A stretch of 64,000 nt of DNA. It comes from an uncultured Bacilli bacterium. GTDB lineage: Bacteria; Bacillota_I; Bacilli_A; RF39; UBA660. The translations under genes were made by a program, and so were the position numbers. The notes beneath the pieces were generated by a model. That model saw only the letters and a list, made by a program, of their open reading frames with translations, did not search any database and was not told where the DNA came from. Position 1 is the first letter of the stretch, and every line of letters begins with the position of its first letter. The stretch is from contig CANQSL010000002.1 in NCBI GenBank assembly GCA_947626515.1, positions 14,339-78,338 of the forward strand. Direction: 5' to 3'. Positions 1,570-60,809 of this stretch are shown here, in pieces.

Positions 1570-2832
1570 ATGAAACAAATTACTTTGCTTCCAGCTGATA
1601 TATATCAAGTTGTTAATAAAAGTATTGTAACTGAATATGATAAAAAAGTTATTATAAATTTATATCAACCTATAATAGGTCCCATGGCAGTAAGCTTATA
1701 TTTTACATTTTTAAGTGATTTAGAATTAAATGATACTTATACACATCATCATTTAATGATAGTTTTAAAAAGTGGTTTAGATTTAATAAAACTAGCTTTA
1801 AAGTCATTGGAATCAGTAGGCTTAATAAAAACTTTTGCTAAAGAAAATAATAATCAATATAATTATATTTATGAAATTTATAGTCCTATGAATCCTAATG
1901 AATTTTTAAATCATCCTATAATGAATGTTATACTTTATAATAATATTGGTGAAGCTGAATATAATAAATTAATAAAATTTTATAAAAAAAATAGTATTGA
2001 TTTAAAAGGTTATACTGATATAAGTAGTAAGTTAAATGAAACTTATATAAGTGTTAGCAAATTCGATAAAAATAATGATTCTATAGAAAGAAAAGAATTA
2101 GGAATAAATATGAAAAATAGTATTGATTTCGATATGATTATTAGTAGTATTCCTAAAAATATAATAAGTGATAGAGCCTTTAATAATAAAGTTAAAGAAT
2201 TAATAAATAATTTATCATTTGTATATGATATTGATACAATTAGAATGGTAGATTTAATTCGCTTAAGTATAGAAGATAATGGTATGATTAGTAAAGATAA
2301 ATTAATTAATAATGTAAGAAAATATTATGATTTTAATTCAAATGGAAATTTGCCAACTTTGATATATAGAACTCAACCAGAATATTTAAAGAGTACATAT
2401 AATGATTCCTCTAATAAAGGAAAAATGATATATGTATTTGAAAATACTAGTCCTTATGATTTTTTAAGAGGGAAGAATAAAGGGATAAAACCTAGCAATA
2501 GAGATTTAAAAATATTAGAGTATTTAGCAGTTGAACTGAAAATGAAACCGGCAGTAATAAATGTTTTAATAGATTATGTATTAAGAATTAATGATAATAA
2601 GCTAAACAGAACTTATATTGAAGCTATAGCGGGAGGGTGGATTAGAAGTAATATCACTACTGCAGAAGCCGCTATGGAAAGAGCAAAGAAAGAACATAGT
2701 AAAAATAATAAAAAAGTATTTAATAAATCAACAGAAAATACTCCAGTATGGTTTAATGAAATGAATGAAAAAGAAGATATTTCACAAGAAGAAAAGCAAG
2801 AATTAGAAGATTTATTAAAAGATTTTAGGTGA
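1570..2832 (+). CDS. dnaB: replication initiation and membrane attachment protein (Bacillus DnaB/DnaD family, not the helicase)
   Basis: C-terminal DnaD/DnaB-type motif YIEAIAGGWIRSNITTAEAA. It sits directly upstream of and overlaps dnaI, as in the B. subtilis dnaB-dnaI operon. Confidence 0.7.
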   Translation: MKQITLLPADIYQVVNKSIVTEYDKKVIINLYQPIIGPMAVSLYFTFLSDLELNDTYTHHHLMIVLKSGLDLIKLALKSLESVGLIKTFAKENNNQYNYIYEIYSPMNPNEFLNHPIMNVILYNNIGEAEYNKLIKFYKKNSIDLKGYTDISSKLNETYISVSKFDKNNDSIERKELGINMKNSIDFDMIISSIPKNIISDRAFNNKVKELINNLSFVYDIDTIRMVDLIRLSIEDNGMISKDKLINNVRKYYDFNSNGNLPTLIYRTQPEYLKSTYNDSSNKGKMIYVFENTSPYDFLRGKNKGIKPSNRDLKILEYLAVELKMKPAVINVLIDYVLRINDNKLNRTYIEAIAGGWIRSNITTAEAAMERAKKEHSKNNKKVFNKSTENTPVWFNEMNEKEDISQEEKQELEDLLKDFR

Positions 2833-2837
2833 TATTT

Positions 2838-3758
2838 ATGGAAAAGATGGATTGTAAAAAAGAAGGATTATATAATGCTAATTTAAATGATTTATTATAT
2901 AAAGATTATATAAAAGCCATGAAAGATGAAAAATTTAAAAAACTTGTTAATAGTTTTAAATTAGATGATAAAGTAGGGATGAAATATACAACGAAATTAG
3001 AAACTACTGTTGAAAACCTAAACAATTGTGAAAATTGTCCTGGACTTACAGCATGTAAAAATAGTGTTGTGGGATGTGTATATTATCCTAAATTAATTAA
3101 TGGAAAGTTAGAATTCAATTATGTCGCTTGTAAATATAAAAATAAAGAAATAGCTTATGAATCTATAAAACGAGCAAAGATGTTTGGACTTTCAAATGAC
3201 TTAAAAAATGCTAAAATGAGTGAAATTGATATTTCAGATAAAAAGAGAGTTAACATAATTAAATATTTAAAGAAGTTTTTCGATAAATATCCAACTTTAA
3301 AAAAAGGAATGTATTTACATGGTTCATTCGGAAGTGGAAAAACTTATTTAATTGCAGCTTTATTTAATGAATTAGCTAAAAAAAATTATAATGCTTTTGT
3401 TGTATATTATCCCGAGTTACTTTCAACTTTAAAATCTACTTTTGATAAATTTGAGGATACAACTTACAGTGATTTAATGTATGAACTTAAAAACACCGAC
3501 CTTTTATTAATTGATGATATAGGAGCAGAGACGGTTACTTCTTGGAGTAGAGATGAAGTTTTAGGAACTATTTTACAATATAGAATGGAAAATAATTTAG
3601 CAACATTTTTTACATCAAATTTAACAATTGAGGAGTTAGAATCTCATTTAAGTTTGACAAAAAATAGTATTGATAAAGTAAAATCAAGAAGAATTATAGA
3701 AAGAATTAAACAACTTACAGAGGATTATGAATTGATAAGTATAAATAGAAGAAGTTAA
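2838..3758 (+). CDS. dnaI: primosomal helicase loader DnaI
   Basis: N-terminal Cys cluster (CENCPGLTACKN...C), Walker A GSFGSGKTYL, Walker B LLLIDDIGAE. ATG 2838 follows AGGTGA. The ORF-track GTG 2829 overlaps the dnaB stop. Confidence 0.85.
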   Translation: MEKMDCKKEGLYNANLNDLLYKDYIKAMKDEKFKKLVNSFKLDDKVGMKYTTKLETTVENLNNCENCPGLTACKNSVVGCVYYPKLINGKLEFNYVACKYKNKEIAYESIKRAKMFGLSNDLKNAKMSEIDISDKKRVNIIKYLKKFFDKYPTLKKGMYLHGSFGSGKTYLIAALFNELAKKNYNAFVVYYPELLSTLKSTFDKFEDTTYSDLMYELKNTDLLLIDDIGAETVTSWSRDEVLGTILQYRMENNLATFFTSNLTIEELESHLSLTKNSIDKVKSRRIIERIKQLTEDYELISINRRS

Positions 3759-3765
3759 AAAGTAT

Positions 3766-3802
3766 AATGCTACTAAATTTATACAAAATGATACTAAATT
3801 TA
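3766..3802 (+). promoter_or_regulatory. pair of 16-nt direct repeats (candidate operator) upstream of the XRE-family gene
   Basis: aatgCtactaaattta (3766-3781) and aatgAtactaaattta (3787-3802). 15/16 identical, with a 21-bp period. Confidence 0.4.
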
Positions 3803-3804
3803 GG

Positions 3805-3834
3805 TTGTGCTACCGATAATTAATAGCATATAAT
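3805..3834 (+). promoter_or_regulatory. putative promoter of the XRE-family gene
   Basis: TTGTGC (3805-3810), 18-nt spacer, TATAAT (3829-3834). Confidence 0.4.
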
Positions 3835-3854
3835 TCTCATTAGAGGTGAGAAAA

Positions 3855-5249
3855 ATGAAGTTTAAAGACAAACTTGTAAAATTAAGAAAAGCCAATAATT
3901 TAAGTCAAGAAACTTTGGCAGAAAAGTTAAATATGTCCAGACAGGCTATTTCTAAGTGGGAAAGTGGAAATAGTTATCCAGATATGAGTACAATGATTAA
4001 TATATGTAAAGTTCTAAATTGTACATTAGAAGATTTATTAGATGACGATGCTATAGGAAATAATAATTTAAATTCTAATAAAAAAAATCCTGCAAAATGG
4101 TTAAAAGATTTTTTGGATTTTATAACTAAAACTTATAATATGTTTTGGTCAATGAATCTTAAACAAAAATTATCATGTATCATAGAAATGATTTTAATTA
4201 TTTTATTTTTAATTGCTGGTTTTGCTGTTATTCATGAAATATTTGAATCAATATTAATAAAGTTATTTAGTGAAATAAATAATAATATAATTTATAAATT
4301 ATATGCTTTTTTGAATTTTATTTATAGTATTATTTCTATTGCTTTAGGACTAATAATATTTATACATTTATTTAAAATAAGATATTTAGATTACTTTATA
4401 ACTATTACTGATAATACAATTGATAAAAGAGAAATAGAAGAAGATATAGAAAAAAATAAACAAAAATATATTGAGAAAATAACTAAAGAGAAGATTGTAA
4501 TTAGAGATCCAAAACATACTCCTTATTCATTTTTTATGCTTTTATCAAAAATAATTGTATTTTGTGTAAAAACTTTTAGTGCTTTTATTCTTATTTTTTC
4601 AATAATTAGTTTTGTATTTTTGATTTTTACTTCAACTGTTTTATTTATATTTTTAAAATATGGATTATTATTTTTTGGTATACTAATTTCTTTTATTGGA
4701 TTAGTAATAGTAAATTATAACATAATAGAGTTATTGTTTAAATTTATATTTAATAGGGTCATTAAATTTAGAAGAATATTTATAACCTTTATAATAGCTT
4801 TGGTTTTAGTTGGAGTCGGAAGTGGCATTTCTGTTAGCAAGATTATGACTTTAAAAAAGCAAAATAATTCTTTAAATTATGATTCTAAAACTTTTACTAT
4901 AAAGGTAGAAGATAATTTAAAAGTTCTTGATATATGGAATACTAATAATATTATATTTGATGATGAAGAAGAAAATATTATTGTAAAAATAAAACATTTA
5001 CCTTATGTCGATGTTGATTTAAAAGATAGCTATGAAATAAGTACTCTTGATAATGGAGAATATCATTATATAAATTACATGTATATACGAATTGATATAG
5101 ATTATATTAAAATGATTAATGTATTATTAAATGATTTAAAAAAATCTACTTATAGAGATTATGATAATCAATATTATTTTATAGAATCTATTACTATATC
5201 TAGAGAAAATTATAATAAAATGATTAAAACAATAGATAGTTTTGAATAA
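3855..5249 (+). CDS. membrane-anchored XRE-family helix-turn-helix protein
   Basis: N-terminal HTH LSQETLAEKLNMSRQAISKWESGNSYP, followed by several hydrophobic segments and a C-terminal soluble domain. ATG 3855 lies 5 nt after GAGGTGA. Confidence 0.75.
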   Translation: MKFKDKLVKLRKANNLSQETLAEKLNMSRQAISKWESGNSYPDMSTMINICKVLNCTLEDLLDDDAIGNNNLNSNKKNPAKWLKDFLDFITKTYNMFWSMNLKQKLSCIIEMILIILFLIAGFAVIHEIFESILIKLFSEINNNIIYKLYAFLNFIYSIISIALGLIIFIHLFKIRYLDYFITITDNTIDKREIEEDIEKNKQKYIEKITKEKIVIRDPKHTPYSFFMLLSKIIVFCVKTFSAFILIFSIISFVFLIFTSTVLFIFLKYGLLFFGILISFIGLVIVNYNIIELLFKFIFNRVIKFRRIFITFIIALVLVGVGSGISVSKIMTLKKQNNSLNYDSKTFTIKVEDNLKVLDIWNTNNIIFDDEEENIIVKIKHLPYVDVDLKDSYEISTLDNGEYHYINYMYIRIDIDYIKMINVLLNDLKKSTYRDYDNQYYFIESITISRENYNKMIKTIDSFE

Positions 5250-26278: not shown

Positions 26279-28018
26279 ATGAGTTTTATTAAATTATTAG
26301 AAAGTGAAATTAGTAAAATTTTAGTATCTTTAGGTTACGAAGATAATGTCGCTTTACTTGTATCAAATAGACCTGATCTTGGGGACTATCAATATAATGG
26401 TTGCATGAAACTTTCAAGCATTTATAAAGAAAAGCCTATTGATATTGCAAACAAGATTGTTGAAAAACTTAATCAAACAAATTATTTTAAAAGTATTAAT
26501 ATAGCAGGACCAGGCTTTATTAATTTAAGTTTTAGCGATGAAGCGTTAATCGAATATATGAATGAAATTTTTAATAATTTCGAAATAAATAATTATAAAG
26601 TAGAAAAAAAATTAGTTTTTTTAGATTATGGTGGAGCAAATATTGCAAAAGAATTACATGTTGGTCATCTAAGAAGTGCAAATATTGGTGAAGCTTTAAA
26701 AAGACTTTTAAATAATTGCGGGGTAAAAACAATAAGTGATGTTCATTTAGGTGATTGGGGAACTCCTATGGGACTCGTAATGAATGAAATAAAACACATG
26801 AAACCTGATCTTCCTTATTTTGATGAAAATTATGATGGAGTATATCCAAAAGAATCTCCTGTTACTGAAAGTGATTTGGCTTATATTTATCCAATGGCTT
26901 CTAAAAAGAAAAAGGAAAGTGAAACCTATGCTTCAGAAGCAAGGGAATTAACTCAAAAACTTCAAAATAAAGACAAAGGATTAATAGCATTATGGAAACA
27001 TATAGTTAATACCAGTAGTATTGATATAAAAAGAGTATATGAAGATTTAGGCGCTTCATTTGATTTGTGGTTAGGAGAAAGCGATGCTGATCCTTACATA
27101 GATGAAGTTTTAAATTTATTAGACAAAAAAGGGTTAACTTATATTTCTGATGGAGCTTTAGTAATGGATGTATGCGAAGATGAAGATAAATTAGAAATTC
27201 CACCAATTTTATTAAAAAAGACAGATGGATCTATTCTTTATGCTTCTACAGAAATGGCAACTTTGTATATGAGAATCAAAGAATATAATCCTAGTGAATT
27301 CTGGTATATAGTCGATAATAGACAAGAATTACATTTTAAACAAGTTTTTAGAGCTGCAAAAAAGTCTGGATTAGTGAATGAAAATGTCGGTTTATATTTT
27401 TTGGGGTTTGGCACTATGAACGGTAGTGATGGCAAGCCATTCAAAACAAGAGATGGTGGAGTGATGTCATTGAAATCTTTAATAGAATTGGTTAAAAGTG
27501 AGACAATAAAAAAAATAAATGATAATATAACGGATAAAGAAGCTTTAGCTAAAGATTTAGCGATTGCGACAATAAAATATGCAGACCTTTTGCCAAATAG
27601 GAGTACAGATTATATTTTTGATCCAATTAAGTTTAGTGATTTAAATGGTAAAACAGCACCATATTTACTTTATAGTACAGTAAGAATGAAAAGTTTATTA
27701 AATAAATCTTTAGAAGAAAAAATAGGGTATAAAAAATATAATATTTTAAAAACTGATTTAGAAAGAAATGTAATACTTAATTTATTAGAAGTTCCAAAAG
27801 TATTAGAAAATTCATTAAATTCTAAAAGTTTAAATGAAATAGCTGAATATTTATATAAATTAACCAATAATTATAATAATTTTTATGCTTCAAATAAGGT
27901 TTTAATTGAAAAAGATACTAAGGTGAGAGAATCTTGGTTAGTATTAACTGAATTAGTATACAAAACAAATAAAATGTTACTTAATATTTTAGGTATAACT
28001 GTACCTGATAAGATATAG
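26279..28018 (+). CDS. argS: arginine--tRNA ligase
   Basis: Class I HIGH motif (ELHVGHLRS). Length and C-terminal anticodon-binding-domain pattern are typical of ArgS. Confidence 0.93.
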   Translation: MSFIKLLESEISKILVSLGYEDNVALLVSNRPDLGDYQYNGCMKLSSIYKEKPIDIANKIVEKLNQTNYFKSINIAGPGFINLSFSDEALIEYMNEIFNNFEINNYKVEKKLVFLDYGGANIAKELHVGHLRSANIGEALKRLLNNCGVKTISDVHLGDWGTPMGLVMNEIKHMKPDLPYFDENYDGVYPKESPVTESDLAYIYPMASKKKKESETYASEARELTQKLQNKDKGLIALWKHIVNTSSIDIKRVYEDLGASFDLWLGESDADPYIDEVLNLLDKKGLTYISDGALVMDVCEDEDKLEIPPILLKKTDGSILYASTEMATLYMRIKEYNPSEFWYIVDNRQELHFKQVFRAAKKSGLVNENVGLYFLGFGTMNGSDGKPFKTRDGGVMSLKSLIELVKSETIKKINDNITDKEALAKDLAIATIKYADLLPNRSTDYIFDPIKFSDLNGKTAPYLLYSTVRMKSLLNKSLEEKIGYKKYNILKTDLERNVILNLLEVPKVLENSLNSKSLNEIAEYLYKLTNNYNNFYASNKVLIEKDTKVRESWLVLTELVYKTNKMLLNILGITVPDKI

Positions 28019-32067: not shown

Positions 32068-32096
32068 TTTACAATTATAAATTTTTATGGTATTAT
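32068..32096 (+). promoter_or_regulatory. putative promoter of the TelA-AAA operon
   Basis: TTTACA (32068-32073), 17-nt spacer, TGgTATTAT (32088-32096). AGGAGGGG RBS at 32113-32120. Confidence 0.45.
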
Positions 32097-32126
32097 ATTT
32101 CTCACTTTTGTTAGGAGGGGTTGTTT

Positions 32127-33326
32127 ATGCCAAAAGACAAAGATACTTCTGTTTATGAAGCAGAAGTAATAGATGAAGAATTAAATCAAGAAGAATCGGA
32201 TGAATTTTTAGTTAAAAGAGTTGATTTTTCTGATCCATATTCTATTAGAAATTATGGAAGTGAAATAGTTAAAGAAACTGCAAATTTAACTTTGGAAGTT
32301 TCAAATATTACAAGAGAAGATATTACTAGTGAATTTGAAAATGAAGAAGCTATTGAGTATATAGAAAATTTTAAAGGTAAAGTTGACGATGAAACTAGTG
32401 ATAAGTTAGGAATAAAAGGTTTGATGAGAAAAGCTGCATATAAAGCTTTATCTGTTATAGGCAAAGAAGATTTATTACCAGTTTTTGATCCAAAAAAAAC
32501 TCATGAAGAATATATAGAAAGTTTACGTGTAATTGCTCAGAATGTTGAAAAAGATTTAGCTGAAGCTGAAAAAGCAATAGATATTAAGCAAGCATTTATA
32601 AAAAATTTAGAACCTTTAATACAACAATTAGAAGAATATGTTAAAGTAGGAGAAGAAGATTTAGAAGCATTTAAAGAAGACATTAAAATTAGAGAATCTA
32701 AAGTTAATTCTTCTTTAAGTGAATATGATAATTTAAAGTTACTTAATGAAATAAAATCTGATAAACAAGCTGTTATTGTTTTTGAAATGCGCTTAGGTAC
32801 TTTGAGAAAACATTTGGCTCTTACTCAAAATTCTAAAGCTTCATGTAATACAGAAATATTAAATGATACTAAAAGAGCAATTGCATATAATGAATATTTA
32901 GATTCAATGTTGCCAGCACTTGAACAAAATGCAACTCTTAAAGTAGAAGCGAGAGTACAAAAATTAAAAATAGATAAACATCAAAAATTATTGGAAAAGT
33001 CTAATAAAGCTCTTAAAGATACATCAAATGAAATATTGGAAAATACAAAAAGAGTTAATGATATGTTTGTAAGTGGAGCAATTTATAATGATACAATTAA
33101 AACTTTGGCTGAAAATATTTCTAAAGGTAATAAATTATTAATAGAAGGAAATAAGCAAAAATTACTTAGTACACAGGAAGGTAATAAGATTGTAACAGCC
33201 TTACAACAAAGTTATCAAGAAAGCGTTCATACTGCCGAAAAATTTATTGGTATAGAATCAAATCAAAATAGTGAGGATGTTGCTTATCTTCCAGAAGGAC
33301 CTACTTTATCTAAAAGAAGGAACTAA
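32127..33326 (+). CDS. TelA-like (toxic anion resistance family) protein
   Basis: N-terminal VDFSDPYSIRNYGSEI matches the conserved TelA start. About 400 aa, all-helical, coiled-coil rich. ATG 32127 lies 6 nt after AGGAGGGG (ORF-track TTG 32121). Confidence 0.75.
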   Translation: MPKDKDTSVYEAEVIDEELNQEESDEFLVKRVDFSDPYSIRNYGSEIVKETANLTLEVSNITREDITSEFENEEAIEYIENFKGKVDDETSDKLGIKGLMRKAAYKALSVIGKEDLLPVFDPKKTHEEYIESLRVIAQNVEKDLAEAEKAIDIKQAFIKNLEPLIQQLEEYVKVGEEDLEAFKEDIKIRESKVNSSLSEYDNLKLLNEIKSDKQAVIVFEMRLGTLRKHLALTQNSKASCNTEILNDTKRAIAYNEYLDSMLPALEQNATLKVEARVQKLKIDKHQKLLEKSNKALKDTSNEILENTKRVNDMFVSGAIYNDTIKTLAENISKGNKLLIEGNKQKLLSTQEGNKIVTALQQSYQESVHTAEKFIGIESNQNSEDVAYLPEGPTLSKRRN

Positions 33327-33328
33327 TT

Positions 33329-34507
33329 GTGATAAAACAAGAATTGATTGAAATTTCTAAAATAGAAGATTTAAAATTAATATACTTTTATTCTATTAAT
33401 AATGAATTAAAAAATAAATATTATGAATTAAAAATAACTTATGGAGATAATTTATCTATGAGTTATAAATATACAGATGAGTATTTTGATTATTTTATTT
33501 CTAAAGTTGTAAGTGTTTATAAAAAAGAAAAAAATAAAAATAATATTATATTTCTTAATGATTTTTCAAAAAAAATATTTGATGAAATTTTAAAAAAAGA
33601 AGATACTCATAAAATAAAACAAGAAATTGATTTGACTGATAATAGAATGAGTATCTTTAATACTATAACTAATGATTTATCTTTGTCAATTCCATATATT
33701 AAAGAGATATTAAATAATTTGTTCATTGCTATATATCGAGATGAAAATATAAAAGTTGAAAATTTTAAAGGAATTAATAATAGAAGATTGTGTACTTTAA
33801 AAAATAATGATAAGGTTATTAATATTCCTTTAATTTTATCGAAAAGTAAAGAAGATCTATTTAATTTTAGGTTTTCTATTGTGAATAAGCAAGCTTATAA
33901 TTTTTTTGGAAAAGTTGCATTTTTAAATGAACATACATTTTCTTATATTAAAGATGAGGTTATTGAAGGCAAATGTTCTTATAAAGTAAGAGAAGATGAT
34001 TGTGTTAAATATATAAATGTAAAAGATGAAACTTTATATTATGATAATGAAACACATTTTTTAAATAATATTGAGCAAGAAATAATTAATCAGTATTTAA
34101 ATCTGCTTGGAATAAGATTATTTTCTAAAATGAAAAAAACTTGTGAAAATACTTATCTTTTATTTGATAGTGTGACAACTGATTCTATAACTAATAGAAG
34201 AACAATTAATATGGTTATGTATAAAGATTATATAAAAATGTTATATAAAAGTGCTTATGGATTAGAAAAAAATAATAATTTTATAATATTAGATGAAGAA
34301 AATGAATTAATTACTATAAAACTAATAGAAGATAAAATTATTATAGAAAAAGCATTTATTGATGGTTTTATTACAAGTGGTGATTACAAAAAAAATTATT
34401 TAAATAAATATAAATATCTTTTATATAATATATCTAAACAAAATTTGATGTTAGCTAATCAATTTAAAGAAGAAAATATTAAAAAGTTAGAATTAGGGGG
34501 TAAATAA
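33329..34507 (+). CDS. hypothetical protein (operon member, no recognisable domain)
   Basis: GTG start 2 nt after the telA-like stop, with AAGGAA 6 nt upstream. 392 aa, no TM segment, no motif. Confidence 0.6.
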   Translation: MIKQELIEISKIEDLKLIYFYSINNELKNKYYELKITYGDNLSMSYKYTDEYFDYFISKVVSVYKKEKNKNNIIFLNDFSKKIFDEILKKEDTHKIKQEIDLTDNRMSIFNTITNDLSLSIPYIKEILNNLFIAIYRDENIKVENFKGINNRRLCTLKNNDKVINIPLILSKSKEDLFNFRFSIVNKQAYNFFGKVAFLNEHTFSYIKDEVIEGKCSYKVREDDCVKYINVKDETLYYDNETHFLNNIEQEIINQYLNLLGIRLFSKMKKTCENTYLLFDSVTTDSITNRRTINMVMYKDYIKMLYKSAYGLEKNNNFIILDEENELITIKLIEDKIIIEKAFIDGFITSGDYKKNYLNKYKYLLYNISKQNLMLANQFKEENIKKLELGGK

Positions 34508-34511
34508 AAAT

Positions 34512-36299
34512 ATGGGAATTTTTAATTTTAAAAAAGAAAATGAACTTACCGATGAAGAACGTTTTAATGCTGTATTAAAGCAGTTGGAAAGTGAATTTGT
34601 AACTACAAATAAAAACAAATATCAAGATTATTTAAATTTTGAAGAAAAAATAACCCTCGATAATGTAGGTAGCAATAATATTAATGCTTTTATATTTATT
34701 ATGAAATTTATAGCAAATACACCTTGGAATTTTAATGATTCTATTACTAAAGTCTTAAATATTATTAATAATATAGATGACGAAGAAATATATAAGCCAG
34801 TTTTAATGCTTATAGAGCGTCATCCAGAATATTATGATAAGATTTTATCTGCTTTGAGCGTATTTCAAAATAAAAGTTTAGTATCTGGTTATTTATCAAA
34901 ATATATATTTGAGTTTAATCCAGATAAATTAAACGTTATATTTGATTATATTTTAAAATCAAGACAATATTTTATAGATGAAGCATCTTTTCTTTCATCG
35001 ATTATTAATTTTGAAAATAGTATAAATAATCCTTTACAAAATAAAGATGATTATGAAAGAATATTGAATGAGAAAATTAAAGAAGATAAAGAATTAGCCG
35101 GTATATATCCTACTTTAGATGAAAAAAAATTAGAGAAATATTTGGAAAAGATGGAAACTGTTTCTAAAGATTTTGCTTTGCTGGAAGAATCATATAAAAG
35201 AATTATTGAAAATAAAGATAGTTTAATGGCAAGTAAGGATGAAATTAGCAGTCTTATTGATAGTAAGTTAACATCATTAGAACAAACTATTTCAAAATAT
35301 GATTCAGTAATAGAAAATGGAAGAAATATTTTAAAAGAGGTTTCTAGTGAGCAATTAAATAAAATTAGAGAGTTATTATTAGAACATAGTTTATTAGAAC
35401 ATAGTGCAAAAAAGGTAAGCAAGATAGAAATAGAAGAAGGCACAATATCTGCATTTGATGAAAGTATACCTATTAAAAATAGATATGAAAAAATAATGTC
35501 TTTAAAACAAAATTCATTATATCATGAGTGTTTCGATAAAGTTGTTAAAGATTTATTATTAAAAAAGAGTGTTTACTTAGTTGGTGCAAGTGGAAACGGT
35601 AAAAGTTATTTGATTTATCAAATTGCAAAAATGTTGGGATTGAAAATTTATAACATAGGATTTGTTGTAGATGAATATACTTCTTTTAAAGGATATAATG
35701 ACGCTAATGGTATTTATGTTCCTACACCATTTTATTATGCTTTTAAATATGGAGGATTATTGTTTGTTGATGAGATTGATAATAGTGAATCTAAGGCTTT
35801 AGTAGAAATGAATAAATTTGTTGAAAATTTTGGATATAAAGAATATCTATTTCCAAATGGTGAATTAGTAAAACCTCATCCTAATTTTAGACTAATTGCA
35901 GCTGGTAATACATGGGGTGAAGGAGCGGATGAAGCTTATTCATCACGTGAAAAGTTGGATTATGCTACTATAAGACGTTTTGATAGAATAGAATTTACTA
36001 TAGATAAAAAATTAGAGAAAAATTTATATAATTTAGATAAAGAATTGTATGAATTTATAGAAGCTTATAGAGGGGTATTAGAAACAAAAAATGAAGAACC
36101 ATTCTCATTAGCAGATACTGAAGATGTATATCGTTTTGTTGAAAGTGGACTATATACTGAAGAAGATATTATAGATAAAAAATTTGTTAAACATAATAGA
36201 AAAGAATATTTAGAAGCTATGTCTTATTCGTTAAGTGAAATATGTCCTAATAATAAATATTTAAAATTATATAATTCTAATATAAGGAGAAATAAATGA
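34512..36299 (+). CDS. AAA+ ATPase of the AAA_5 (CobS/MoxR/NorQ-like) type with a ~350-aa unknown helical N-terminal region
   Basis: Walker A GASGNGKS (35583-35606), Walker B LLFVDEID, FRLIAAGNTWGEGAD, ATIRRFDRIEF. Confidence 0.8.
   Translation: MGIFNFKKENELTDEERFNAVLKQLESEFVTTNKNKYQDYLNFEEKITLDNVGSNNINAFIFIMKFIANTPWNFNDSITKVLNIINNIDDEEIYKPVLMLIERHPEYYDKILSALSVFQNKSLVSGYLSKYIFEFNPDKLNVIFDYILKSRQYFIDEASFLSSIINFENSINNPLQNKDDYERILNEKIKEDKELAGIYPTLDEKKLEKYLEKMETVSKDFALLEESYKRIIENKDSLMASKDEISSLIDSKLTSLEQTISKYDSVIENGRNILKEVSSEQLNKIRELLLEHSLLEHSAKKVSKIEIEEGTISAFDESIPIKNRYEKIMSLKQNSLYHECFDKVVKDLLLKKSVYLVGASGNGKSYLIYQIAKMLGLKIYNIGFVVDEYTSFKGYNDANGIYVPTPFYYAFKYGGLLFVDEIDNSESKALVEMNKFVENFGYKEYLFPNGELVKPHPNFRLIAAGNTWGEGADEAYSSREKLDYATIRRFDRIEFTIDKKLEKNLYNLDKELYEFIEAYRGVLETKNEEPFSLADTEDVYRFVESGLYTEEDIIDKKFVKHNRKEYLEAMSYSLSEICPNNKYLKLYNSNIRRNK
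35376..35405 (+). repeat. perfect 15-bp tandem duplication inside the AAA+ gene
   Basis: ttattagaacatagt x2 (35376-35390, 35391-35405), encoding LLEHS-LLEHS. Confidence 0.9.
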
Positions 36300-37294
36300 T
36301 AAAAAAAGAAGTTAAGCTTGAAAATGGAACTACATTATACTATGTGGAATTTGATAATGTAGATGATATGCTTAATTTCATAACAAATACACCTTATAAT
36401 TCTAAATTTTCATCAAGAGCTAGTACTATTAAATCAGATAAAAGAAACTATTTAACTGGTACTAAAACTTTTGAAGAAGCTTTAGAATTATTTAGACATG
36501 GTATTTTTACTAATGAGGTAGAAGAGTTAATAAACTTAAAAAAAGATTTAGAATTAAATATAAATAATTTAGTTAAAGGTAGAAAAAACGTACGTTCAAT
36601 TTATGGCTATAGAAGTGATGTACCTAGATTTATTATGGGTCAAAATGATTCAATGTATAAAATTATTAGAGATAAAGTAAATTTTATAAATATTATATAC
36701 AATGTTACTGCACATGGTAGGGTTTCTCCTAAAGCTGTTAAGATAAAAGGGCTTCTTACATATTTGTTGATCGCTATATTAGAATCATTAAATAATAGAG
36801 TTAATTTTGATTTCTTAGCATGTTCTGGAACAATACCTCCAAATGGAGATTTATCAAATGGAATAACAAATAATCTTGTAATCAAATTAAATATAAAAAG
36901 ATTTAGCAATAAATTTGATATAAATAGTGCTTATTTTCCATTATGTCATCCAGCTTATTTAAGAAGAATTATATTTAATGTAATAGAAAAATTAGATTTT
37001 GAACATATGGATTATTGGGCAAATCAATATGGAAGTAATTGCCAAAGTATAGAAGATATAAAAAATATGGTTGGAGTAAAAAATTCTATAGTTATATCTA
37101 GATTAGAAAATAAATTTAGCAACAATCTTGCTACGGGAGATGTTGATGAGAAAATAACTATAGAAGATATTAAAGATAATTTTAATATATTTATTGATAG
37201 TTTAAATGAGCAAGGATTATATGACTTATTAAACGGTAACACTTTAGCTTTTGAAGAAAATAGAATTGTTTTAAGAAAGTATAAAAAAAATTAA
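36296..37294 (+). CDS. hypothetical protein, possible vWA-like partner of the AAA+ ATPase
   Basis: ATGA overlap with the AAA+ stop. The strand-loop-helix-strand pattern NIIYNVTAHGRVS...LLIAILESLNNRVNFDFLA resembles the start of a vWA fold, but without DxSxS. Confidence 0.55.
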   Translation: MIKKEVKLENGTTLYYVEFDNVDDMLNFITNTPYNSKFSSRASTIKSDKRNYLTGTKTFEEALELFRHGIFTNEVEELINLKKDLELNINNLVKGRKNVRSIYGYRSDVPRFIMGQNDSMYKIIRDKVNFINIIYNVTAHGRVSPKAVKIKGLLTYLLIAILESLNNRVNFDFLACSGTIPPNGDLSNGITNNLVIKLNIKRFSNKFDINSAYFPLCHPAYLRRIIFNVIEKLDFEHMDYWANQYGSNCQSIEDIKNMVGVKNSIVISRLENKFSNNLATGDVDEKITIEDIKDNFNIFIDSLNEQGLYDLLNGNTLAFEENRIVLRKYKKN

Positions 37295-37299
37295 GTTAG

Positions 37300-37338
37300 G
37301 TATAATTTTTTGTAAACTGACAAAATTATACTTTTTTT
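37300..37338 (+). terminator. intrinsic terminator closing the four-gene operon
   Basis: gtataatttt (37300-37309) / aaaattatac (37322-37331), 12-nt loop, T7 run (37332-37338). Confidence 0.55.
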
Positions 37339-58625: not shown

Positions 58626-60809
58626 CTATCTAGATCTACCTCTTCTAGGTTCTTCTAACTCTTGTTCTTCAAAGCTATTGTATTGATAAGGGTATGGATA
58701 AGGAAATGGATATGATTGAAATTGTGTTTGTTGTTGTACTTGTTGTCTAGGCTGATTATTATTTTCTTGTTTTTTATTTTTTTTATTGTTATTTTTATTT
58801 TTTTCGTTGTCATTCTCTAAATTTGGATCATTCAACTTATTTATTTCTTCAACCCTTTTTTCATTTTCTATAATACTTTTATCAATTTGACTATCTAGTA
58901 AATTTGCCTTTTCTTTTTGGGAATTTAATTTAAATTCTACCTTTTCAATATCAGCTAAGAATTTAAAATATTCACTAGAATTATAATAGTTTTGAAACTC
59001 ATTTTTATATTCTGTTTTTAGAATTCTAATTTCTTCTAAAGTTTTATTTAAATCTCCCTTAGTATTGAATAAATTATTTTTTTCGTTTAATAACGCACTT
59101 TTATAATCGCCACTAGGAACAAATTTAGATACTGTTTTTACAGTTAATTGACTTTGTAGTTTTTTATAAAGTTCTGGTAATGATAAATTATTATTAGGAT
59201 TGTTAATCATTTTCATTGCTAGAGTAGTAAGTTGTAATTTATTTTTTATTTCCATATCGCCTAAGAAAAATTTTTTACTTATTTTTTCTTCAGCAGCAAT
59301 ATTTTTTATTTTACTATCTAAGTTACCTATAGAAATTTGAAATTTTAATATTTTATTTTCAAATTCAAATCTTTTTTTCTTAAAATTCTCTAAATCTTTT
59401 TCTTCTTGTTCTTTAGTATCTGTTTTGTCATTTACTAACTCTTGTTTTTCTATTATTTCTTGTTTTTGATATTCTGTATTTTTCTTTATTTCATTTATGT
59501 CGTTTTTATAATTTATTTGTCCATTTATGTTATTAAATATTTCTTTTTTATATAGTGATTTATCTTTTTTTAAATAATCGATATAAGTATCAAGTTCCTT
59601 AGGTTTATTTTTTGACATTGCAAAAACTTCATTCATAATATTTTCATTTTCAATATTATTTATTCTGCCAATTATGCCATTAATATTTTCCATATTTTGC
59701 TCTAATCGATTCATTAATTTGTTTATTTCTTCAATGTCACTTGTATTTTCTAATTCTTTATGAATTCTATGGTTTTCTAATTCTAATTCCCTTAAAGAAG
59801 ATTTATCGTCTTTAATTTTTTTTGATAATGTTTCAATAAAATCTTGTCTTCCTATTTCTAATTCTTTTTCAATAATATCTTCTTTACTTGGTTCTTTTTC
59901 ATCAGGTTCTTTTTCATCAGGTTCTTTTTTGTTAGGTTCCTTTTCATCAAGTTCTTTTTCATCAAGTTCTTTTTCATCAAGTTCTTTTTCATCAAGTTCT
60001 TTTTCATCAGGTTCTTTTTCATCAAGTTCTTTTTCATCAGGCTCTTTTTTGTCAGGTTCTTTTTTGTCAGGTTCTTTTTTGTCAGGTTCTTTTTTGTCAG
60101 GTTCTTTTTTGTCAGGTTCTTTTTTGTCAAGTTCTTTTTTGTCAAGTTCTTTTTTGTCAAGTTCCTTTTTATTTGGTTGATTTAAATCTTGTTTATTTTT
60201 ATCTTCAATTTTAAGCTCTTTATTTTCTTCTTTTAAATCTTTTGGTTTTTCATTGTTGTCTAATTTTTTTTCGTCAATAGCGACTTTAATATTTTTTTTT
60301 GCTTCTTCTTTTTTTTGATTTTCTAGATCTTTCTCATCTTTATTTTTTTCTTCTTTTTTAGGTTCTATTTTTTTATTATCACTATCTTTGGATTTTTCTT
60401 TCTTTTCTCCTTTTTTAATTACATTGTCAATTTCTTTTTTTAAATCTTCAAATTCATCTTGCTTTTCCTCTTTTTTATTTACGGTTTTAATTGAAGTAGA
60501 ACTTTCTTTTTTAGGCATTATTTCTTCAGTAACATTAGCTTTTTTTAAATCATCTTTATCTTTCTTTTCTGGATTAATGTGCAATTTAATTGCAACTTTA
60601 ACTTTTCTTCTATTTTTCTTTTTAATATTTTTTTCTAATAATTTTTTTGTTGCATAAAATTCTTCTTCTTTTTTTCTTCTAATTCTATTTATTTCCTCTT
60701 TTTTTTTCTTTTTTTCTTCATATTCTTTTTTCTTTTTTTTGGCAAGATTTCTATAATATAATTTTAAATATTTAAAATAATCATTAACGTCTTTTCTATT
60801 AGTATTCAT
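58626..60809 (-). CDS. Lys/Glu-rich, repeat-containing coiled-coil protein of unknown function
   Basis: 727-aa ORF. Basic N-terminus, 19 pentapeptide repeats (K/E)KE(L/P)D, a long predicted coiled coil, and a Gln-rich/YPFPYPYPYQY C-terminus. No TM segment or signal peptide. Confidence 0.7.
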   Translation of the reverse strand: MNTNRKDVNDYFKYLKLYYRNLAKKKKKEYEEKKKKKEEINRIRRKKEEEFYATKKLLEKNIKKKNRRKVKVAIKLHINPEKKDKDDLKKANVTEEIMPKKESSTSIKTVNKKEEKQDEFEDLKKEIDNVIKKGEKKEKSKDSDNKKIEPKKEEKNKDEKDLENQKKEEAKKNIKVAIDEKKLDNNEKPKDLKEENKELKIEDKNKQDLNQPNKKELDKKELDKKELDKKEPDKKEPDKKEPDKKEPDKKEPDKKEPDEKELDEKEPDEKELDEKELDEKELDEKELDEKEPNKKEPDEKEPDEKEPSKEDIIEKELEIGRQDFIETLSKKIKDDKSSLRELELENHRIHKELENTSDIEEINKLMNRLEQNMENINGIIGRINNIENENIMNEVFAMSKNKPKELDTYIDYLKKDKSLYKKEIFNNINGQINYKNDINEIKKNTEYQKQEIIEKQELVNDKTDTKEQEEKDLENFKKKRFEFENKILKFQISIGNLDSKIKNIAAEEKISKKFFLGDMEIKNKLQLTTLAMKMINNPNNNLSLPELYKKLQSQLTVKTVSKFVPSGDYKSALLNEKNNLFNTKGDLNKTLEEIRILKTEYKNEFQNYYNSSEYFKFLADIEKVEFKLNSQKEKANLLDSQIDKSIIENEKRVEEINKLNDPNLENDNEKNKNNNKKNKKQENNNQPRQQVQQQTQFQSYPFPYPYPYQYNSFEEQELEEPRRGRSR
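59890..60174 (-). repeat. 19 tandem 15-bp repeats (coding)
   Basis: Plus-strand units are ggttctttttcatca or ggttcttttttgtca, forming two sub-families. The last unit (60160-60174) is degenerate. Confidence 0.95.

Follow-up and report, generated by a model that had tools for sequence, protein, structure and literature searches.

The 64,000-nucleotide (nt) stretch analysed here (the window) comes from an uncultured Bacilli bacterium of the UBA660 lineage (contig CANQSL010000002.1) and carries, at positions 32127 to 37294, a cassette of four genes that very probably encodes a functional four-component system. The system would combine an AAA+ motor (ATPases associated with various cellular activities) with a partner that resembles a von Willebrand factor A (vWA) domain, and with two further proteins, one of them, judged by its sequence, a diverged TelA. 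The four genes recur as a block across gut and rumen Firmicutes, and the motor and its vWA-like partner also recur, without the other two, in phages. Public sources assign no names to the four proteins, which are called g1 to g4 here:

32127..33326 (alternative start 32121), + strand: g1, 399 amino acids (aa) from the ATG, diverged TelA-family protein, helical
33329..34507, + strand: g2, 392 aa, rare unannotated family, with a predicted N-terminal alpha/beta part and then long antiparallel beta meanders
34512..36299, + strand: g3, 595 aa, CobS/MoxR/NorQ-class AAA_5 ATPase
36296..37294, + strand: g4, 332 aa, DUF7192, predicted vWA-like (CobT/NorD-like) adaptor without the MIDAS motif (metal-ion-dependent adhesion site)

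The initial annotation of this DNA had described four coupled + strand open reading frames (ORFs), with a gap of 2 nt between g1 and g2, a gap of 4 nt between g2 and g3, and an ATGA overlap between g3 and g4. Coordinates and junctions were confirmed, as were the motifs DFSDPYSIRNYGSEI, GASGNGKS, LLFVDEID, FRLIAAGNTWGEG and ATIRRFDRIEF, all of which are found in the translations. A purine-rich ribosome-binding site precedes each of the four starts. No transmembrane segment is found in any of the four proteins, and the maximum Kyte-Doolittle hydropathy of g1 is 0.79 in a 19-residue window.

The quartet is conserved far beyond the window. A scan of the GTDB species representatives (one genome per species) with a g3 profile gave 74 loci, in which gene content was called with iterated hidden Markov models (HMMs) for the four families. 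The hosts are gut and rumen Lachnospiraceae, Ruminococcus (including the cultured R. albus AR67 and KH2T6) and Oscillospiraceae, together with uncultured Bacilli, Erysipelotrichaceae and a few genomes labelled Muribaculaceae. The complete quartet is present in 54 of the 74 loci. Among the 50 long-form loci that lie away from contig ends, 47 have all four genes, so that the block which the initial annotation recognised in a single genome is indeed co-conserved in others; the other three have no detectable TelA. Gene order is g2-g3-g4-TelA in 38 of the 47 complete loci and TelA-g2-g3-g4 in eight, and one locus has a split g3. The permuted order g2-g3-g4-TelA was first met in a Lachnospiraceae genome, and the quartet occurs in unrelated contexts. 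Across the cassette loci, the median gap at the junctions is -1 nt. When 539 flanking ORFs from 58 loci were clustered, no family besides TelA was found in more than five loci. There is thus no fifth conserved gene, which bears out the description of the operon as self-contained. In two loci, g3 is split into two consecutive ORFs (L085 6122-8409 and L072 7443-9550), due either to a frameshift or pseudogene or to an assembly error.

Between lineages, the cassette proteins have diverged to 20-36% identity. Closely related copies are found in three Ruminococcus genomes, where the cassette of R. albus AR67 shares 94.5% nucleotide identity with that of R. albus KH2T6 and 83.9% with that of Ruminococcus sp. 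RUI259:

L018 6556-11532; L019 6310-11283; L020 6312-11274: Ruminococcus cassettes compared, 84-94.5% identity within the four genes

The shared identity starts about 110 nt 5' of g2 and runs to the stop codon of TelA; the flanking sequences are unrelated. The four genes therefore behave as one exchangeable unit, and the confinement of the identity to the cassette points to recent block exchange. Transposon-like ends were considered and rejected, as the borders of L018 and L019 contain only repeats of 14-18 nt at chance level, none of them shared. A search of the PLSDB plasmids gave no match to g2 or g4. An apparent difference between loci L004 and L005 upstream of the cassette turned out to be a gene-calling artefact, as the DNA is 99.8% identical.

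The assignment of g3 is carried by profile comparisons. It scores 39.6 bits against Pfam AAA_5 (gathering score 22), and a profile built from 40 full-length homologues finds the nearest solved relatives in the PDB to be midasin AAA (8e-21), CobS (8e-11), CbbQ (3e-8) and NorQ (6e-6), all of them matched over the AAA core only. ClpX and other clades follow at 6e-5 or weaker, through the P-loop only. On these profiles g3 is an AAA_5 ATPase of the midasin/CobS/CbbQ/NorQ class, in agreement with the CobS/MoxR/NorQ type proposed for it earlier. Residues G358, G361, K364, E421, D423, N466, R479 and R489 are invariant in the 40 homologues. As a CobS equivalog (TIGR01650), g3 scores 13.9 bits, far below the cut-off of 558.55. 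Three parts can be distinguished in the protein:

34512..35171, + strand: N-terminal domain (about aa 1-220) with motifs ARQYYVDExAF and EDKxxAGIY, found in the cellular four-gene form only
35172..35528, + strand: helical, coiled-coil-like linker of variable length (about aa 221-339), indel-rich in the homologue alignment
35529..36299, + strand: AAA_5 core and lid (aa 340-595) with GASGNGKS, LLFVDEID, sensor-1 N466, R479 and R489

The linker is longer by up to about 100 residues in some homologues and gives weak matches to Spectrin and CHASE3 over aa 200-290. The first ~350 residues of g3 had been thought to be novel. This holds for the N-terminal domain, about 220 residues without a Pfam or PDB match, and not for what follows, since residues 224-520 match the phage CobS-like family phrog_249 ('porphyrin biosynthesis') with 5e-41. 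A reading of the cassette as McrBC- or CoCoNuT-like, with a GTPase and a nuclease, was rejected: the g3 motifs are of the ATPase type, its best relatives are midasin and CobS, and g4 gives no significant match to a nuclease fold or motif.

Adaptors of the vWA type are known partners of the CobS/MoxR/NorQ clade of ATPases. The initial annotation had called g4 a possibly vWA-like orphan. The second half of this description was wrong, as g4 matches Pfam DUF7192 (PF23822) with 1.1e-26 and 94.3 bits (gathering score 27) and phrog_1909 with 1.3e-25. The DUF7192 profile is matched by all 76 members of the g4 family (best 1.7e-92). A homologue search with the single g4 sequence came back empty because its 90%-identity database cluster is represented by a 70-aa fragment; the profile search succeeded. 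The first half of the description may hold at the level of the fold. For an AlphaFold2 model of moderate confidence (predicted local distance difference test, pLDDT, 72.3; predicted template modelling score, pTM, 0.74), the top Foldseek matches in the PDB are the NorD vWA domains of NorQD complexes, which are weak (E=8e-3, probability 0.95-0.96, template modelling (TM) score 0.2-0.3). They are followed, again weakly, by the vWA folds of Ku70/80, Sec23/24, TFIIH p44 and integrin. In BFVD, a library of predicted viral structures, DUF7192 proteins of phages take the first twelve places (E 2e-11 to 2e-6), and the fold matches include a DUF7192 protein of Lactobacillus phage 3-521. Directly behind the twelve follow a phage 'cobalamin biosynthesis protein' with 1.4e-4, then a 'cobalt chelatase CobT subunit' with 2.8e-3, and several vWA proteins of phages. 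Because two independent structure libraries match alike, g4 points to an adaptor of the CobT/NorD type. The modelled fold thus weakly but consistently resembles vWA, and g4 is best described as vWA-like, not as a member of the vWA family. One segment of g4 deserves separate mention:

36587..36661, + strand: flexible loop of g4 (aa 98-122; VxGSRPNVPxFxAGxPKxMYR), candidate pore-inserting 'finger'

In this loop, G104 is invariant, P107, P110, G115, P117 and M120 are kept in 62-73 of the 76 family members, and the pLDDT is 52-57. By analogy with the finger of NorD and the shaft of CobT, the loop may be a pore finger.

TelA proteins are linked to envelope stress and toxic-anion resistance. The alignment of g1 with the TelA profile is end to end, joining residues 28-364 to positions 4-327 of the 332 in the profile, and the orthologues at the same position in other cassettes are, by their own profile scores, bona fide TelA. 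Ten of the 11 g1 orthologues of the upstream type match TelA (best 3.2e-32), and Pfam calls TelA in 42 of the 47 ORFs directly 3' of g4 (best 7e-76). Ten cassette partners, about 350 aa long, match TelA with 212-256 bits over the whole profile and are canonical, full-length members of the family. The assignment of g1 to the TelA family, as first made from its N-terminal signature, is thereby upheld, and g1 is read from these matches as a diverged member. Over loci L016-L089, the TelA partner takes three forms: a diverged long form of about 390-430 aa, located upstream as in the window, and two downstream forms, one short (about 200-235 aa) and the other canonical and full-length (about 350 aa).

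Profile searches with g2 found nothing in Pfam, NCBIfam, PADLOC, PHROGs or the PDB sequences. It is nevertheless not the orphan that it had been taken for, since an exhaustive HMMER search of 1.84 billion proteins identified 67 representatives of its family, all of about 350-430 aa. The AlphaFold2 model of g2 is confident (pLDDT 90.2, pTM 0.80), and predicts an alpha/beta part at the N-terminus and two long meanders of antiparallel beta strands. Foldseek found no PDB match to this model at E<1e-3, with a best query-normalised TM-score below 0.2. A beta-propeller sensor was considered and rejected, the matches to Nup133 having E values of about 0.02 and a TM-score of 0.14. By hhalign, g2 is not related to the genes that adjoin the phage pair described below, and no kinship was found within the cassette for g3 versus g1 or g2 versus g4.

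Two of the four families are abundant in phages, with 242 matching phage records for g4 and 610 for g3. The g4 gene and the g3 core adjoin in Staphylococcus phage K and its relatives (ORF15-ORF14), in Enterococcus phage vB_CECAV_04 and in Clostridium phage CS266P3, and matches of the g3 core extend to Listeria phage A511 (gp158 region) and Lactobacillus phage 3-521. From IMG/VR, the g3 profile recovered 80 contigs: 72 have g3 and g4 side by side, in either order, eight have g3 only, and none has g1 or g2. The viral ATPases have 258-568 aa, and their matches begin at g3 residue ~240 or later. Neither g2 (by tblastn) nor residues 1-223 of g3 match any of 50,697 phage genomes. The phage pair, phrog_249 and phrog_1909, thus resembles the cassette in its homologous ATPase core (40-46% identity, about aa 335-530), in its homologous DUF7192 partner and in the adjacency of the two genes; it differs in the short ATPase, which lacks the N-terminal domain of about 220 aa, and in the absence of accompanying g2 and TelA. 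As the g3 core and g4 are shared with many phages that infect Gram-positive bacteria and the rest is never found in phages, the N-terminal domain of g3, g2 and TelA define the cellular form.

A mechanism can be proposed by analogy with better studied members of the clade. The finger of NorD enters the pore of NorQ (PMC13036017), and the shaft of CobT reaches into the ring of CobS, while CobN is bound on the far side (bioRxiv 10.64898/2026.07.21.739949). On this pattern, the ring would remodel a client that the adaptor holds on its other side. The g3 ring would most likely be hexameric, with g4 as its vWA-like adaptor of the CobT/NorD type, devoid of a metal-binding MIDAS, and the conserved flexible loop of g4 might enter the g3 pore as finger and shaft do in those systems. 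In gut and rumen Firmicutes, the pair would have gained the N-terminal domain and linker of g3, g2 and TelA, always travelling together. The N-terminal domain of g3 is likely to be a docking platform, because it is found only where TelA and g2 occur. This domain and the far side of g4 may hold g2 and TelA. ATP hydrolysis could then assemble, release or activate TelA beneath the membrane, and g2 may be a sensor or a client. We infer both the direction of the remodelling and its trigger.

The patchy distribution of the cassette, its fast divergence and its mobility as a unit fit an accessory stress or conflict module. We regard the reading as a whole, an ATP-driven remodelling machine with an accessory role in envelope stress or conflict, possibly directed against phages, as evenly balanced between right and wrong. 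Taken by itself, the assignment of the role to envelope stress or conflict is tentative, and falls somewhat short of an even chance.

A number of results weigh against this reading. The match of g1 to Pfam TelA (PF05816; E=1.9e-5, 24.4 bits) lies under the gathering score of 30. The fold search with g4 gave no PDB match at E<1e-3, with TM-scores of 0.2-0.3 for a model with pLDDT 72; g4 has no PDB sequence match either, and none of the 76 DUF7192 proteins gives a VWA, VWA_2 or CobT_C sequence signal at E<=1. The MIDAS motif DxSxS follows the first core strand of a vWA domain, and the position of its aspartate in g4 was inferred by comparing how the secondary-structure elements are ordered. There, the g4 family has N in 62 of 76 members and D in three. 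The MIDAS-equivalent of the window g4 is N-V-T-A-H, and an NxSxS-like remnant is seen in part of the family. The argument for a physical complex of g1 to g4 is their gene linkage, from which we infer it. Defence databases and gene neighbourhoods do not help. The initial annotation had proposed a check of the cassette against PADLOC, and no model was significantly matched: in PADLOC-DB v2.0, g1, g2 and g4 have no match at E<=1, and g3 has only weak hits at the level of the P-loop (mad8 5.9e-4, IetA 3.3e-3). A Pfam and PADLOC scan of 137 flanking ORFs, comprising the two or three nearest genes per locus with ten ORFs of more than ~700 aa left out, found mostly housekeeping functions and about 5% defence-like genes. 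These were single hits to AbiO, Nhi, PDC-S13, PDC-S23 and PDC-S01, and a few to PDC-S05 and mad. TerD, TerC, TerB and XpaC are absent from the 25 commonest Pfam families in this sample.

The cassette may be a hitherto unrecognised system that protects gut and rumen Firmicutes against phages or invaders and that arose from a captured CobS/CobT-like motor-adaptor pair of phages. In that case, g2 would be the sensor of infection, and TelA, deployed at the membrane by the motor, would block the infection or abort it. This more specific proposal is doubtful.

A dedicated chaperone for maturation or cofactor insertion, comparable to CobST-CobN or NorQD, is still less probable. The client would be g2 and the scaffold TelA, and the function would be an accessory metabolic one. 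CobS, CbbQ and NorQ are the closest solved relatives of g3, the g4 fold is like that of NorD and CobT, the neighbouring genes are metabolic or housekeeping, and g2, predicted to be stable and well folded, always accompanies the pair in cells. However, the MIDAS is degenerate in g4, with N for D in most of the family, and the score of g3 against the CobS equivalog is a small fraction of the one required (13.9 bits versus 558). Moreover, the recurrent neighbours do not include a gene for CobN, nitric oxide reductase (NOR) or RuBisCO, the flanks share no recurring family, and g2 is not recognisable as a member of any enzyme family. Nor would this reading account for the strict linkage to TelA.

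The abundance of the g3 core and g4 in phages, seen in the 242 and 610 records and in 72 of 80 viral contigs, raises the question whether the cassette stems from phages and continues to serve a phage or prophage rather than the host, for example in superinfection exclusion or as an assembly chaperone of a cryptic element. In locus L004, moreover, a Bro-N gene whose product matches PDC-S13 adjoins the cassette. This explanation is nonetheless very unlikely. The g2 and TelA genes and the N-terminus of g3 are absent from all phage genomes and viral contigs searched; the genes that flank the 58 cellular loci are ordinary chromosomal ones, among which neither integrases nor phage structural genes recur; and the window has the cassette between a glycosyltransferase gene and rpoBC, in DNA whose composition shows no anomaly. 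Finally, the idea that the four genes are unrelated neighbours, brought together fortuitously in the window, is refuted by their co-conservation: the quartet occurs in 54 species-level genomes, where it takes two permuted orders, has overlapping junctions and lies between flanks that are unrelated.

The proposed remodelling system is best placed by comparison with described ones. The aerobic cobaltochelatase CobNST and the phage cobST pairs, which are widespread in tailed viruses (PMC8651126), pair an AAA_5 motor with an adaptor of the vWA type, the shaft of which goes into the ring; CobS is among the best PDB sequence matches of g3, and CobT proteins are the first fold matches of g4 outside DUF7192. 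In contrast to CobT, g4 is half as large and has neither a MIDAS nor a VWA sequence signal, and the recurrent neighbours of the cassette provide neither CobN nor the context of a corrin pathway. NorQ-NorD, CbbQ-CbbO and RavA-ViaA, the last of which is reported to act at the inner membrane (PMC9489729), belong to the same AAA+ clade and follow the same two-component logic, and the vWA domain of NorD is the top fold match of g4. They differ in having defined enzyme clients and an intact MIDAS, whereas the constant partners in the cassette are TelA and g2.

The Ter/TelA clusters (TerD, TerC, TerF/TerY vWA, TelA, XpaC) share with the cassette a TelA-family member, and the pairing of TelA with a vWA-type protein is a theme among them; TelA and the vWA protein TerF have been proposed to build sub-membrane structures that hinder the entry of phages or xenobiotics (PMC7824862). 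The cassette neighbours, however, do not include recurrent TerD, TerC, TerB or XpaC, and an AAA+ motor and g2 are present instead. The vWA-MoxR ternary conflict systems (PMC7159879) and the Esr threat-sensing pathway (bioRxiv 10.64898/2026.09.08.750141) resemble the cassette in architecture: they combine a MoxR-class motor and a vWA protein with a variable third protein, which acts in sensing or as an effector, and their gene contexts are accessory and variable. The cassette differs from them in showing no kinase, FHA or effector domains, and in a motor that is nearer to CobS and midasin than to MoxR proper. TelA is nowhere mentioned in the survey of the vWA-MoxR conflict systems (Kaur, Burroughs, Iyer and Aravind 2020, eLife, PMC7159879). 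We found no paper that describes the quartet or DUF7192, or that connects TelA with an AAA+ ATPase, in line with the earlier statement that no described system joins TelA to an AAA_5/vWA-like pair; the name DUF7192, the Pfam accessions and the PHROG identifiers are likewise absent from the papers searched. The motor (MoxR/CobS class), the vWA-like adaptor and TelA all belong to kinds already known, and the combination, the N-terminal domain of g3 and the g2 family are new.

The signals that bracket the operon in the window are as follows:

32068..32096, + strand: promoter-like TTTACA-17-(TG)TATTAT, in the 91-nt gap that separates g1 from the divergent glycosyltransferase gene
32113..32118, + strand: AGGAGG ribosome-binding site, 8 nt 5' of the g1 ATG (32127)
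37298..37338, + strand: AT-rich hairpin (37298-37333) followed by T7, a terminator-like operon end

Both the promoter and the terminator of the initial annotation exist as sequences. The promoter-like site matches at 10 of 12 positions and has a TG upstream of TATTAT. As the DNA of the window (23% GC) contains 70 such sites against 75.9 expected from shuffles, and hence no enrichment, the match 5' of g1 is plausible by position only. The hairpin is AT-rich and weak (-8 kcal/mol, z = -2.05 versus shuffles), and a G+C-based terminator scan did not report it. The GC content is about 0.20-0.26 over the operon and its surroundings, which therefore show no compositional anomaly.

The initial annotation had further proposed that the operon was inserted just upstream of rpoBC, at the place where rplKAJL would be expected. 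In the window, argS and a sulfatase-family gene lie upstream, and are followed by the divergent glycosyltransferase gene, the cassette, a small methyltransferase gene, rpoB and rpoC. The nearest relatives that could be found with the methyltransferase (47% identity; RpoB 74%) have nusG-rplK-rplA-rplJ-rplL directly 5' of the methyltransferase gene and rpoBC, and none of them has the cassette. No rplKAJL homologues were found within the 64-kb window. The break in synteny is thus real. A simple insertion of four genes is not demonstrated, because these relatives are distant and differ over the entire upstream region. In some of them, a 345-aa ORF (for example L174 7854-8891; compared with L172 and L175) sits between rplL and the methyltransferase gene. 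Since this ORF is present in some relatives and absent from others, the slot that holds the cassette in the window is variable in relatives too.

Some further observations concern the surroundings of the cassette. In locus L004, from a spore-former, a gene for a TehB-family (tellurite-resistance-type) S-adenosylmethionine (SAM) methyltransferase and the Bro-N gene mentioned above lie directly 5' of the quartet (2645-4127); the Bro-N protein matches the PADLOC candidate PDC-S13 with 2e-112. In the window, positions 58626-60809 on the - strand encode a 727-aa, extremely Lys/Glu-rich protein with about 25 tandem pentapeptides (KKELD / KKEPD / EKELD) and a Pro/Tyr/Gln-rich C-terminus, in the region with the strongest AT skew of the window (-0.34 to -0.40). 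Over window positions 1-64000, there is no tRNA gene and no Rfam family at the gathering threshold. Neither a T-box 5' of argS (26279-28018) nor ribosomal-protein leaders in the window were detected.

To our knowledge, the mechanism of TelA, a widespread 'toxic anion resistance' protein, is not known. If the reading proposed here is true, TelA gains defined partners and an energy source, and its function becomes testable. The cassette is compact (about 5 kb), is carried by cultured Ruminococcus albus strains and lends itself to transfer into a model host. The g2 family adds a confident protein model without a fold match in the PDB. The cassette also ties the abundant and unexplained phage pair of 'CobS' and DUF7192 proteins to a cellular system, and suggests that this pair is a general remodelling module rather than a vitamin B12 gene.

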